From contig DAOTTS010000056.1 in assembly GCA_034437735.1 (NCBI GenBank), forward strand, positions 2,751 to 66,750: a DNA stretch of 64,000 nucleotides, read 5' to 3'. This DNA comes from Anaerolineae bacterium. Its GTDB lineage: Bacteria; Chloroflexota; Anaerolineae; B4-G1; SLSP01. Both the position numbers and the translations under genes were made by a program. Every line of letters begins with the position of its first letter. The stretch's first letter is position 1. The notes under the pieces were generated by a model, which was given only the letters and a program-made list of their open reading frames with translations, was not told where the DNA came from and ran no database searches. Below are positions 32,569 through 37,461 of the stretch, in pieces.

Positions 32569-33387
32569 GTGAGCTCCGAGGATCCGTTGGACGTCCAACC
32601 GATCGTACGCAATCGACGCGATTCAATCATTGCCACCCCGCCACAGACCCTCATCGATCCCCCATCCCTCCCGCAAGCCGAATCGCAATCCTCCTCTGCC
32701 CGTCGCACCCAGCGGCGACGGCTCACCCAACAGCGTATTGCCACCCAAGAGGAGGAGCGCCGACGTCTATCCCAGGTGCTGCACGATGAAACGGCCCAGG
32801 CTCTGATTGCGCTGAAGATCCACCTGGGACTGATTCAGGACGACCTCCCTCCCACGTTCCGCGCGCTTCACCGGCGCCTGGGTGAAGCCCTGGCCCTGAC
32901 CACGGAAACCATCGAGCAGATTCGATCCCTGGCGCACGAACTCCGGCCCCCCGCCCTCGACGCAGCGGATCTTTCCGCCGCCCTGACGCGCCTGTGTGAG
33001 AACTTCGCGAAACACACCGGGCTCATCCTCACGTATGCAGCACCCAAAAGGGCTCCGACCCTCCCCGATACGACGAGCCTCTGCCTCTATCGCTTTGTAC
33101 AGGAAGCGCTGACGAACGTCGCCAAACACGCCAGCGCAAGCCGCGTCCACGTGAGTGGGCGATGGGACGCCGAACAGGTCACACTGATGGTCAAGGATGA
33201 CGGTCGCGGCTTTGATCCAGACGCCCAACTCACCGGCGGAGGAGGGTCGATGGGAATTGGGCTCTTGAGCATACGAGAGCGGTTCGAGTCCCTGGGCGGG
33301 CAGTTGACGATCGTGTCCCAACCGGGGGAAGGCACGTGCCTGACGGCCTCGCTCCCGATACGCGCCGGTCGAGGCGCCGACCGGTGA
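32569..33387 (+). CDS. Sensor histidine kinase, HisKA_3/HATPase_c (NarL-partner type), soluble with no TM or sensor domain
   Basis: H-box LHDETAQAL and N/G1/G2 ATPase blocks. The start is chosen at GTG 32569 (RBS GAGGTGG, 5-nt spacing), because the 32512 GTG is occluded by the upstream hairpin. Confidence 0.75.
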   Translation: MSSEDPLDVQPIVRNRRDSIIATPPQTLIDPPSLPQAESQSSSARRTQRRRLTQQRIATQEEERRRLSQVLHDETAQALIALKIHLGLIQDDLPPTFRALHRRLGEALALTTETIEQIRSLAHELRPPALDAADLSAALTRLCENFAKHTGLILTYAAPKRAPTLPDTTSLCLYRFVQEALTNVAKHASASRVHVSGRWDAEQVTLMVKDDGRGFDPDAQLTGGGGSMGIGLLSIRERFESLGGQLTIVSQPGEGTCLTASLPIRAGRGADR

Positions 33388-34037
33388 TTCGCGTCCTCGT
33401 CGCCGACGACCATCACCTGGTACGGCAGGGGATCTGCGCCCTCCTGGCAAGAGCACAGGACATCGAGGTCGTCGGTGAGGTCGCGGACGGGCAGGAAGCC
33501 ATCGAGCTGACCCGAGCGCTCCATCCCGACGTCATCGTGATGGACGTGGCGATGCCCAGATTGAGCGGCAACCAGGCCGTGGCGCGGATTCACGCCTCGT
33601 ACGCATCGACCCAGATCGTGATGCTGTCGGTACACTCGGACGAGACGCTGGTCCGACAGGCATTACGGAGCGGGGCCGTCGGGTATCTGCTCAAGGACTC
33701 CGTGAAGGAGGAGCTGCTCCTGGCGGTCCGTGCAGCGCACCGACGTCAGATCTACTTGAGCCCGCCCCTATCCACGTCCCTGGTGAGCAGCTATCTGGCC
33801 TCCGAGCAAGCGGAGGACCTATCGAGCCCTTTCGAACAGCTCACGCCACGGGAGCGCGAAGTTCTCCAACTCATCTGCGAGGGGCAGACCAATCACGGGG
33901 TCGCCCAGATACTGAAAATCAGCCCCAAAACGGTGGAGAAACACCGTGCGAACGTGATGGCTAAGTTAAACGTCCATAACCTGGCAGCGTTGATCCGCAC
34001 CGCCATCCAACACCACTTGATCTTCATCGATGCATAA
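33384..34037 (+). CDS. Response regulator, NarL/FixJ family (REC plus LuxR-type HTH)
   Basis: VLVADDH...D receiver and a C-terminal LTPREREVLQL...GQTNHGVAQIL HTH. GTG 33384 overlaps the kinase stop (GTGA). Confidence 0.85.
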   Translation: MIRVLVADDHHLVRQGICALLARAQDIEVVGEVADGQEAIELTRALHPDVIVMDVAMPRLSGNQAVARIHASYASTQIVMLSVHSDETLVRQALRSGAVGYLLKDSVKEELLLAVRAAHRRQIYLSPPLSTSLVSSYLASEQAEDLSSPFEQLTPREREVLQLICEGQTNHGVAQILKISPKTVEKHRANVMAKLNVHNLAALIRTAIQHHLIFIDA

Positions 34038-34134
34038 CGCAAGACCTTCCGAAAATGGGGGCGTTTATCCGCCAGAAGGTAGGGAAATCACGTATAGACG
34101 GGGCGCCCGATCTGCCTCATAATGAAAATTGAGA

Positions 34135-34153
34135 GGAGATCGCAACGATCTCC
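34135..34153. repeat. REP-like palindrome GGAGATC-GCAAC-GATCTCC (family B) between the response regulator and the protease gene
   Basis: Perfect inverted repeat. Same family as 10136, 46644 and 47444. Confidence 0.6.
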
Positions 34154-34298
34154 TGACCAAGGTTCCGCCCCTCCCCCGGCAACGGGCCGTCCTCATCGTC
34201 AACGCCGCCTGTCAGGGCAATCCGTTGCCAACCACGCACTTCATTAGGTATGGGTAATCCCCGAGTAAGTGACAGAATTATATGATGAGGAGGTATAT

Positions 34299-36381: not shown

Positions 36382-36774
36382 ATGAGTCCAGAAATTACGA
36401 TTACCATCAAGATCGCCACCACAGATGCGGGTGACGTGGTCTCCACCATCGAGACCTCGGGGAGTGAGCAGGTGATGACCGTCCCATCCGTGGACGCGCC
36501 CTCGGGCACGGGCGAGGCGGGCATCCCGGCGCCCCCGTCGATCGACGCATCGGCTGAAGCCGCCGCCCCCACCCTGCCGCCGCCGCCCGAGGCCGAAGCC
36601 GAGACCGGGGCGGAGGCGATTCCCTCGCCGCCTGAGGTCGATACAACTGCCGAGTTGGGAGGGACAACGGACGTCACCGAGGTCGACGTCCCGCCCCCGC
36701 CGGAGGTCGATGACGCGACCGAGTTTGGGGACTCTGAGGGGCTGGGTACAGCGAGCGTCCCACCCCCACCGTGA
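36382..36774 (+). CDS. Acidic, Pro-rich low-complexity protein (repeated PPPPEVD-like units), predicted disordered
   Basis: RBS GAAGGAGGA is 5 nt before ATG 36382. The composition is repetitive and no signal peptide is present. Coding status rests on the RBS and on its position between the two paralogue genes. Confidence 0.45.
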   Translation: MSPEITITIKIATTDAGDVVSTIETSGSEQVMTVPSVDAPSGTGEAGIPAPPSIDASAEAAAPTLPPPPEAEAETGAEAIPSPPEVDTTAELGGTTDVTEVDVPPPPEVDDATEFGDSEGLGTASVPPPP

Positions 36775-36786
36775 ACCTGACACCCA

Positions 36787-36832
36787 GGCTTCCGATTTCG
36801 CGCACGCCTACCGCCTGCCGAAATCGGAAGCC
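36787..36832 (+). terminator. Hairpin GGCTTCCGATTTCG-(18 nt)-CGAAATCGGAAGCC after the acidic protein gene
   Basis: Perfect 14-bp inverted repeat followed by TCGTTCCCGTTCG, a weak U-tract. Confidence 0.4.
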
Positions 36833-37077
36833 TCGTTCCCGTTCGTCCCATACGGTATCCTCTGCTCAGGAAATTCCAGAGGATGGCTAGGTGCGATGCA
36901 CTCAAGTGCGTTGCACCGGGTTTCAAAAGAAACCTCAAATCATCGTAGTCGAAGCATCATAAGACAAAAACCGTCACTGCGCTAAGCCGAATATCCTGAG
37001 TTAAAGATATCGTACCGTTCGTCCTTGCCTCCTCTTGCGGCGCCCAGTACCATGGGAGATCAGAGAGAAAGGATGAG

Positions 37078-37461
37078 ATGGCAGTCATGAAAGCGAGTTT
37101 CGTCTCGTTGCTATTGGCTTTACTCGTCTTAGTGAGTTGTGCCCCGAACGGCGAGCCGGAGACCGGCAGTAAGGACCAGGAAACTATGCCCATCGTTGTT
37201 GTCGTTCAGTTATCACCCGACGTTGCCCGCGCCATCCACGAGGGGGACTCCTCGGATGCAGCCGAGACGCTTCAAGCCCTCCTGGATGATATGAATGTGG
37301 CGATGAACCCGATGCATCCCAATACGCGCGATCCGCTGTTGATCCCCTACTTTACGGTGGACGTCTCCGATCGCGCAAAGGCCGAACAGGTCGTTGCCGA
37401 ACTCAACGAGTTGCCGTTCGTTGAGGGCGCGTATATCAAGCCCCCCGACGCGCTGCCCTGA
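37078..37461 (+). CDS. Lipoprotein paralogous to the N-terminal prodomain-like region of the S8 peptidase; candidate protease inhibitor
   Basis: Lipobox LVLVSCA. The C-terminal PFVEGAYIKPPDALP matches peptidase VVEAAYIKPPAEP. The upstream LLIPYF...VSDRAKAEQVVAELNEL parallels peptidase LVPLF...APDERLEELADNLRE. Confidence 0.6.
   Translation: MAVMKASFVSLLLALLVLVSCAPNGEPETGSKDQETMPIVVVVQLSPDVARAIHEGDSSDAAETLQALLDDMNVAMNPMHPNTRDPLLIPYFTVDVSDRAKAEQVVAELNELPFVEGAYIKPPDALP

Follow-up and report, generated by a model that had tools for sequence, protein, structure and literature searches.

Analysis of a 64,000-nucleotide stretch of the genome of an Anaerolineae bacterium (assembly GCA_034437735.1, contig DAOTTS010000056.1, positions 2,751 to 66,750; here called the window) suggested that a divergent subtilase gene belongs to a four-gene cassette in which an autoinhibited protease is accompanied by a mimic of its own propeptide, supplied in trans, and by a free copy of its C-terminal domain, here called X, so that X occurs both in cis and in trans. 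A toxin-like role is part of this reading, which we give an even chance of being right as a whole. All four genes lie on the plus strand: the S8 peptidase (568 amino acids [aa]; 34299 to 36005), the stand-alone X copy (c73, 73 aa; 36082 to 36303), an acidic, proline-rich protein (130 aa; 36382 to 36774) with a GGAGG-type ribosome-binding site, and a lipoprotein (127 aa; 37078 to 37461) that is a stand-alone paralog of the peptidase prodomain and is referred to as the partner. The gene order and open reading frame (ORF) coordinates reported in an initial annotation of this DNA agree with the ORF list of the window for the entire cassette, and microbial-mat metagenome contigs hold identical genes, with all four predicted there by gene callers. 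When the four proteins were searched against Pfam, the S8 core of the peptidase was recognized and the three small proteins were unmatched; the partner, c73, the Pro-rich protein, and an 88-aa X domain found in relatives had no significant match in Pfam, NCBIfam, or the sequences of the PDB.

The peptidase appears to be built of three parts, namely, a predicted I9-like prodomain (aa 24 to 132; 34368 to 34694), a catalytic subtilase domain (aa ~150 to 495; 34746 to 35783), and the fused X domain (aa 497 to 568; 35787 to 36005), with a disordered linker at aa 137 to 148. The Pfam family Peptidase_S8 matched aa 208 to 444 only (E = 2e-14), and the nearest match among the sequences of solved structures reached only E = 1e-5, the best matches including intracellular serine proteases. 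The Asp-His-Ser triad in subtilase order and the oxyanion Asn are nevertheless all present, and D193, H225, N327, and S429/S430 show no variation among 78 homologs, consistent with a divergent subtilase that is predicted to be proteolytically active. The family is large: a word-indexed search returned at least 4,924 proteins, and 378 loci were found among the GTDB species representatives. Locus comparisons drew on a sample of 80 related loci, which represent over 12 phyla.

Modeling with AlphaFold2 (predicted local distance difference test [pLDDT], 84.4; predicted template modeling score, 0.85) placed a β-α-β-β-α-β type domain at aa 24 to 126, to which a hairpin and a single additional helix are added, and predicted that this I9-like fold packs onto the catalytic domain in the manner of pro-subtilisins. 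Among the structural neighbors of the model, pro-forms aligned over more than 315 residues (fervidolysin, 331; PfSUB1, 337; ProN-Tk-SP, 335), while mature-only enzymes aligned over 240 to 280.

The initial annotation had proposed that the lipoprotein is a detached paralog of the peptidase N-region, and this proposal gained strong support. The pairwise similarity is weak (14 of 38 residues identical; E = 7e-4); comparison by hhalign of a profile of 58 lipoprotein homologs with a profile of peptidase N-regions gave a probability of 99.3% and E = 1.9e-20 over 86 columns, aligning the whole mature lipoprotein with aa 25 to 132, a decisive result. An ORF of the partner family adjoins the peptidase gene in 58 of the 80 loci, usually immediately upstream, and in two more it is hidden in overlapping ORFs; a further 102 members of the family were found, all of them small and unannotated. 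Since the partner is paralogous to a prodomain-like domain and its position is conserved, a trans-acting inhibitor or chaperone is the best reading of its function, as the initial annotation had surmised on other grounds. Weak matches of partner family members to ACT_4 (6 of 29) and to Fervidolysin_NPro-like (2 of 29) point faintly in the same direction, toward ferredoxin-like prodomain families.

Partners share a core of about 90 residues (aa 37 to 127 in the window) that closes with the near-invariant end VE[AG]AY-x-KP-x-[DG]E-x-P-COOH, which in the window reads VEGAYIKPPDALP. The same VE[AG]AY-x-KP motif marks the end of the peptidase prodomain (VEAAYIKPPAEP), and the last residue of the partner pairs with peptidase residue 132 in the hhalign alignment. 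In the AlphaFold2 model, the pLDDT exceeds 90 up to about residue 130, a β-bridge is formed at residues 130 and 131, and confidence collapses thereafter. Because the partner stops a few residues past AY-x-KP, where the confidently modeled prodomain tail also ends, it resembles a propeptide that has already been cleaved. It is this conserved tail, and not the LIPY motif, that is probably the element binding the active site.

The LIPY motif had carried the argument in the initial annotation, where LIPY/F-like segments of the lipoprotein and the peptidase (LLIPYF and LVPLF) were equated and read as the hallmark of intracellular subtilisins (ISPs); that part of the reasoning fails. In the hhalign alignment the two segments are out of register, LLIPYFTVDV of the lipoprotein corresponding to PDFSTFYRVQA of the peptidase and MNPMHP of the lipoprotein to LVPLFG of the peptidase. 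ISPs bear the pattern [LVI]-[IFLV]-P-[YFH] at residues ~6 to 9 of a short N-terminal propeptide that takes the place of a prodomain (PMC6220982). The LVPL of the peptidase falls outside this pattern, and the LIPY of the lipoprotein lies in an internal β-strand, and only some 5 of the 29 family members keep its Pro. The family resembles ISPs in comprising S8 proteases that lack an export signal and are, as predicted here, autoinhibited by an N-terminal element; it differs in having a prodomain of ~110 residues instead of a propeptide of ~18 to 20 residues, and in the lack of conservation of LIPY. Register, motif conservation, and prodomain thus all contradict an ISP identity.

A broader form of this idea is that the peptidase is an intracellular housekeeping or regulatory protease with an ISP-like role and endogenous cytoplasmic substrates, that the partner is a buffering inhibitor, as IPI is for Isp1 in Bacillus subtilis, and that X dimerizes, its free copy tuning the oligomer. 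The absence of export signals speaks for this. No signal peptide is apparent on inspection of the peptidase, as the initial annotation had remarked, or in any of 73 homologs examined (73/73), and the free X copies, the Pro-rich proteins, and most partners lack one too; the intracellular serine proteases among the best solved-structure matches fit as well. We nonetheless consider such a role unlikely. The ISP hallmark, a short LIPY propeptide in place of a prodomain, is absent; the ricin, CDtoxinA, tectonin, and FG-GAP modules at the C-termini of relatives are typical of extracytoplasmic targeting; and a partner signal peptide is found in 8 loci, with a lipobox in 7. In the window the partner begins with the signal MAVMKASFVSLLLALLVLVS (aa 1 to 21), followed directly by the Cys of a lipobox, LVSC, which conforms to the pattern [LVI][ASTVI][GAS]C, as read from the sequence. 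The other lipobox-bearing partners, with LVAC or MGSC signals, are those of the closest relative (L001) and of five Chloroflexaceae, and in a Chloroflexia metagenome-assembled genome (L006) the signal peptide of the partner lacks a clean lipobox. Since most partners have no signal peptide, the membrane anchor stressed in the initial annotation is not a feature of the family.

The second paralogy noted initially, between the 73-aa ORF and the last ~70 residues of the peptidase, was clear already in pairwise comparison (44 of 71 residues identical to peptidase aa 499 to 568, or 62%; E = 6e-28) and exceeds chance by far. The model of c73 (pLDDT, 94.2) has the order β1-β2-β3-α-β4-β5 of an oligonucleotide/oligosaccharide-binding (OB) fold, and the fused X domain was modeled with the same topology. 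A structure search with c73 gave scores of 10.4 for the pro-region of pro-protein-glutaminase, 9.5 for LT-IIb B, 9.0 for CipA, 8.7 for SilF, 8.3 for pertussis S5, 7.7 to 7.8 for PltB, SubB-type, ArtB, and Stx2B subunits, and 7.4 for CTB, while nucleic-acid-binding OB folds scored 6.6 or less. In a Foldseek search, the top 50 matches were almost all AB5 B subunits (TM score up to 0.81; E ~3e-3). Two independent searches therefore rank AB5 B subunits in or close to first place, and X is predicted to have a small, enterotoxin B-type OB fold; with 7 to 18% sequence identity, the likeness is one of fold only. A word-indexed search with c73 alone returned only 8 close relatives, and an exhaustive profile search returned 167 representative clusters, mostly free-standing proteins of ~73 aa, the others located at protease C-termini. 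One distant protein from the latter search (P0256, 144 aa) has a clear N-terminal signal peptide, which implies that some versions of the 73-aa domain are exported; neither c73 nor the relatives inspected have one, and c73 thus departs from the Sec export of AB5 subunits. Trp-30 of c73 is invariant and Trp-2 and Trp-21 are nearly so.

Three small C-terminal modules occur in the peptidase family: the 73-aa domain of the window, an all-β domain of 88 aa, and DUF6623. A free copy of X lies directly downstream of the peptidase gene in 8 of 10 loci of the 73-aa class and in 17 of 20 of the 88-aa class, in which latter class the fused and free copies are 50 to 79% identical, and a DUF6623-class locus (L011) has a free copy that is 90% identical to the fused one. 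No free copy was found in loci whose peptidases end in large lectin or propeller domains. The idea of a detached C-domain copy as a partner of the protease is thereby strengthened. A common origin of the three module types was ruled out (hhalign probability below 2% between types), as was membership of c73 in DUF6623. The 73-aa domain also ends an M6 metalloprotease (immune inhibitor A/InhA-like) that is followed by a free copy (L084, 3 to 1456; L085, 2 to 1058; L086, 20 to 1092), a Pro-rich repeat ORF following the free copy. Recurrence of "fused X plus free X" in three unrelated domains and two protease classes points to a general principle of assembly or targeting.

In a tree of X domains, fused and free copies pair by lineage, which fits either coevolution or gene conversion. 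Such pairing could also arise if recent duplications kept producing free copies that are nothing but nonfunctional debris. The free copies, however, are intact, begin precisely where the domain does, and are furnished with ribosome-binding sites of their own; they have diverged from the fused domains by 40 to 80% with all core residues retained, and they recur across phyla (25 of 30 loci) and in three unrelated domain types. The partner family, with its conserved tail, likewise occurs in about 60 of the 80 loci. These conservation data effectively refute the debris explanation, which we regard as having a negligible chance of being correct.

The Pro-rich protein, which the initial annotation had not singled out, is a conserved fourth component, judging from comparison of its sequences across loci. 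An N-terminal strand (MSPEITITIKIA) is followed in the window by five [ILV]P-x-PP repeats (IPAPPSID, LPPPPEAE, IPSPPEVD, VPPPPEVD, and, at the C-terminal end, VPPPP), and L001 encodes a homolog with 36% identity (E = 4e-12). All loci of the 73-aa class, including the M6 loci L085 and L086, have a positional analog after free X, of common design: a strand M-x-PEI[TV]I-x-I and four to five [ILV]P-x-PP[ES]-x-[DE] repeats, with the final one placed at the C-terminus. The analog in the 88-aa class starts with MRITIE and has DAG-x-PP-x-x-LL-x-AI repeats, and it persists where free X is missing (L047 and L071). Because the type of repeat tracks the type of X, and not that of the protease, and because X is rich in Trp, we propose that the repeats act as polyproline II ligands of X.

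These repeats could alternatively mark the protein as the precursor in a pathway resembling that of ribosomally synthesized and posttranslationally modified peptides (RiPPs), with a leader (M-x-PEITITI) and repeated cassettes that the subtilase excises, as do PatA/PatG and LanP, the partner serving as a regulator and X as a substrate-recruiting domain. A conserved N-terminal segment, three to five repeats with the last one at the C-terminus, and a constant position beside a protease would suit a precursor, and PatA, PatG, NisP, EpiP, and CylA are among the structural neighbors of the catalytic domain; ATP-grasp genes are present in a subset of loci. Multicore RiPP precursors, however, usually vary in their cores, whereas here the repeats are conserved and the spacers variable. 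The type of repeat follows the X class and persists beside M6 metalloproteases, although the S8 cores of the classes are ~60 to 68% identical, and neither the window nor most loci contain a modification enzyme. A role in RiPP-like maturation seems to us quite improbable.

Downstream of the catalytic domain, the peptidase family is modular. In addition to the three small modules, its members end in ricin-B lectins, the Cdt A/C lectin (CDtoxinA), tectonin, DUF346, or FG-GAP propellers, DUF5648 or BTRD1 repeats, or a crystallin-like domain. The catalytic core remains ~55 to 78% identical across Chloroflexota, Cyanobacteria, Actinomycetota, Acidobacteriota, Planctomycetota, Nitrospirota, Proteobacteria, Bacteroidota, Verrucomicrobiota, Gemmatimonadota, Myxococcota, and, among archaea, Methanosarcina and Haloferax; metagenomes contain thousands of proteins of the family. 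The family is patchily distributed, covering bacteria of many phyla and some archaea, and its members are carried on megaplasmids in Haloferax mediterranei, in the Bacillus cereus group, and in Nostoc commune. The wider neighborhood is unconserved: the 146 flanking ORFs matched 187 Pfam families, none of them in more than four loci. Core identity of ~60% across phyla and archaea, patchy spread, and unrelated flanks indicate a mobile accessory trait, and on sequence comparison the cassette reads as self-contained and horizontally mobile. The same facts count against the housekeeping role considered above.

Mobility and patchy distribution would also be expected of an anti-phage system acting by abortive infection, in which infection would free the autoinhibited protease to kill the cell, the partner serving as the antitoxin and X as the sensor. 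Defense systems such as IetS are known to include S8 proteases, and the window cassette adjoins a restriction enzyme. The peptidase, c73, the Pro-rich protein, and the partner were, however, all unmatched in PADLOC, whose models include the subtilase IetS, and only about 7 of the 146 flanking ORFs of related loci matched defense models, so that the flanks are not clearly enriched in defense genes and identity with a known defense system was rejected. A phage search gave one weak match and no clear phage-borne copies, and C-domains of the lectin type and an exported partner are ill suited to a cytoplasmic sensor. We judge abortive infection to be very improbable.

Taken together, the data lead us to favor the following scheme for the autoinhibited cassette. 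The protease would be made without an export signal and held inactive by its own I9-like prodomain, for which fold and docking are predicted by the model. As a mimic of a cleaved propeptide, the partner would bind the protease and place its C-terminal tail in the substrate cleft, and it might act as a trans-acting inhibitor or immunity protein and possibly also as a foldase. Exported as a lipoprotein, it would guard the cell surface in the window organism, while in most other taxa it would be cytoplasmic. Free X may coassemble with fused X into a heterooligomer, for which the Pro-rich protein may provide a multivalent ligand or scaffold. The whole could represent a targeted protease of toxin- or bacteriocin-like nature that comes with an immunity protein, the binding moiety being X or, in relatives, a ricin, CDtoxinA, tectonin, FG-GAP, or DUF5648 module. 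This last step is the least certain; it is suggested by the modules of the lectin or B-subunit type, by the S8 moiety as in SubAB, by frequent transfer and plasmid carriage, and by the surface-anchored partner of some taxa.

Several points weigh against this scheme. Its main obstacle is that the protease and X lack export signals: signal peptides were missing from all peptidases examined, from the free X copies and Pro-rich proteins that were inspected, and from most partners, whereas classical AB5 toxins are exported by the Sec pathway. An exported lipoprotein partner and a nonexported protease have no obvious route by which to meet. Release by lysis, or a cytoplasmic store directed against grazers, would reconcile the missing signals, but this is speculative. 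The positioning of the tail in the cleft and the coassembly of fused and free X are our inferences, and the partner tail ends in Pro, which would be unusual as the P1 residue of a subtilase if the equivalent site of the peptidase is cleaved. The Pfam profile of Inhibitor_I9 (PF05922) matched neither the peptidase nor the partner at E ≤ 0.1, nor any of 29 partner family members at E ≤ 1. A wider generalization, which we put forward tentatively and consider somewhat doubtful, is that the cassettes form a modular class of A-B protease effectors spread horizontally across bacteria and archaea, in which an S8 or M6 protease with a fused X (OB, 88-aa, or DUF6623) is completed by free copies on a Pro-rich scaffold; the S8 versions would add propeptide-mimic immunity, and the product would be a signal-peptide-independent toxin, bacteriocin, or antigrazer weapon that leaves the cell by lysis or some other export.

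Single ideas in this scheme have precedents. Free-standing propeptide-like inhibitors include yeast PBI2 and Pleurotus POIA1, and the protease ASP of Aeromonas sobria has no propeptide, its place being taken by an external chaperone, ORF2 (3wqb), whereas the peptidase described here retains its own prodomain in addition to the free copy. The SUB1 propeptide-like protein of Plasmodium is a further eukaryotic inhibitor of the I9 propeptide-like type (PMC6993865). With PBI2, POIA1, and the Plasmodium protein, the cassette shares a ferredoxin-like prodomain on the catalytic domain and a separately encoded prodomain-like protein acting, as predicted here, in trans. The free inhibitors described are eukaryotic, however, while our partner is a paralog of the prodomain that the enzyme of the same cassette retains, bears the family-specific tail AY-x-KP-x-[DG]E-x-P, and lacks a Pfam I9 match, its inhibitory action being predicted. 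Potempins of Tannerella forsythia are lipoprotein inhibitors encoded beside secreted proteases (PMC9890683; PotC-mirolase, 8ehe); in the parts of that account available to us they are not described as prodomain paralogs and the KLIKK peptidases are secreted, whereas the peptidase here is free of a signal peptide and the lipoprotein anchor is confined to a subset of taxa.

Among AB5 toxins, SubAB in particular resembles the cassette in combining an S8 moiety (SubA, 2iy9) with a small OB-fold module of B type encoded as a separate gene (SubB type, 9kyc), and the B subunits that c73 matches are those of LT-II, Shiga, pertussis, PltB, ArtB, and SubB. The cassette differs in having one B-like domain fused to the protease, no signal peptides, no A2 linker, and an additional Pro-rich protein; homopentameric rings and glycan binding are features of AB5 B subunits, with which X was compared by fold, at 7 to 18% sequence identity. 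We know of no case in nature in which CipA is fused to a protease. This crystalline-inclusion protein of Photorhabdus (7xhs) has no detectable sequence relationship to X and offers an analogy only, for a storage or scaffold role. In the S8-PTS polymorphic toxin system, a secreted single-domain S8 protease stands beside a BetaH toxin and immunity pair (PMC9424270); identity with this system was rejected for the present peptidase, which is multidomain and signal-peptide-free and has no adjacent toxin-immunity pair. Neither the composite cassette nor the "fused X plus free X" rule was found in the literature that we searched, in line with the earlier impression that a layout of protease, detached prodomain, and detached C-domain had not been described.

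Upstream of the cassette, the plus strand encodes a soluble histidine kinase with HisKA_3 and HATPase_c domains (32512 to 33387) and a response regulator with REC and GerE domains (33336 to 34037), the two ORFs sharing a 52-nt overlap and the latter being separated from the peptidase gene by a gap of 260 nt. The kinase has no transmembrane or recognizable sensor domain, and its first ~80 residues are rich in Pro, Ser, and Gln. The initial annotation had placed the cassette under the control of this pair, which we reject for lack of conserved synteny: a histidine kinase or response regulator is found near the cassette in only 1 of the 80 related loci, and there on the opposite strand. Between the Pro-rich and partner genes lies a hairpin (36786 to 36833, plus strand) that is strong by folding energy, with a perfect 15-bp stem (ΔG, −37 kcal/mol; z, −5.9). 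Its presence agrees with the initial annotation, which designated it a terminator; it has no U-tract, and a terminator scan did not call it. The closest relative, L001, has an IS200-like Y1 transposase gene at this position (4080 to 4541; Y1_Tnp, E = 3e-32), and an IS200/IS605-type end, rather than a terminator, may have left the hairpin behind as a relic. Directly 3' of the partner gene, on the plus strand, is the gene of the Type ISP/Type IIG restriction-modification enzyme (1126 aa; 37596 to 40976), which matched Type_ISP_C (E = 1.8e-48), N6_Mtase, and PADLOC REase_MTase_IIG (E = 5e-89); a promoter-like site precedes it (37516 to 37545).

Related loci vary around this layout. On plasmid pHM500 of H. 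mediterranei ATCC 33500 (L088), HFX_RS17165 (5028 to 6758) encodes a peptidase with the 88-aa X domain and is followed by HFX_RS17160 (6821 to 7075), a free X copy with 79% identity; no gene for a partner was detected within 5 kb. Plasmid pIS56-328 of Bacillus thuringiensis (L087, 6001 to 7368) encodes a family member of 455 aa with 54% identity and no C-terminal module, and a 77-aa ORF upstream of it was rejected as a partner by hidden Markov model search. On megaplasmids of the B. cereus group this 455-aa member sits among other S8 peptidases and insertion sequence elements, and 177 Bacillus plasmid records were counted. The Chloroflexia locus L006 (5827 to 13558) has two tandem peptidase genes with a free 73-aa copy after each, then one Pro-rich ORF, a truncated third S8-X ORF (12133 to 13056), and one signal-bearing partner; it is a locally amplified cassette. 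In about 19 loci, the peptidase has a C-terminal extension of ~155 to 175 aa and is followed by genes for a 242-aa Pfam-negative protein and a 314-aa RimK-like ATP-grasp enzyme (L042, L044, L050, L058, L062 to L064, L066 to L068, L072, and L080; e.g., L066, 7972 to 8700, and L068, 8625 to 9569).

If the partner is indeed a propeptide-mimic inhibitor, its family may comprise the first free-standing I9-like inhibitors of bacteria and archaea encoded beside their cognate subtilase, and these inhibitors would offer a recognition tail that is simple and testable. The X module has a realistic chance of being something new, and the "fused X plus free X" arrangement could link subtilases to an AB-type toxin architecture beyond SubAB. 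Four components, namely, the partner, the 73-aa domain, the 88-aa domain, and the Pro-rich proteins, are without a current Pfam family. As the family occurs in tractable organisms, including H. mediterranei with pHM500, B. cereus and B. thuringiensis with their megaplasmids, and Nostoc, these predictions are directly testable.

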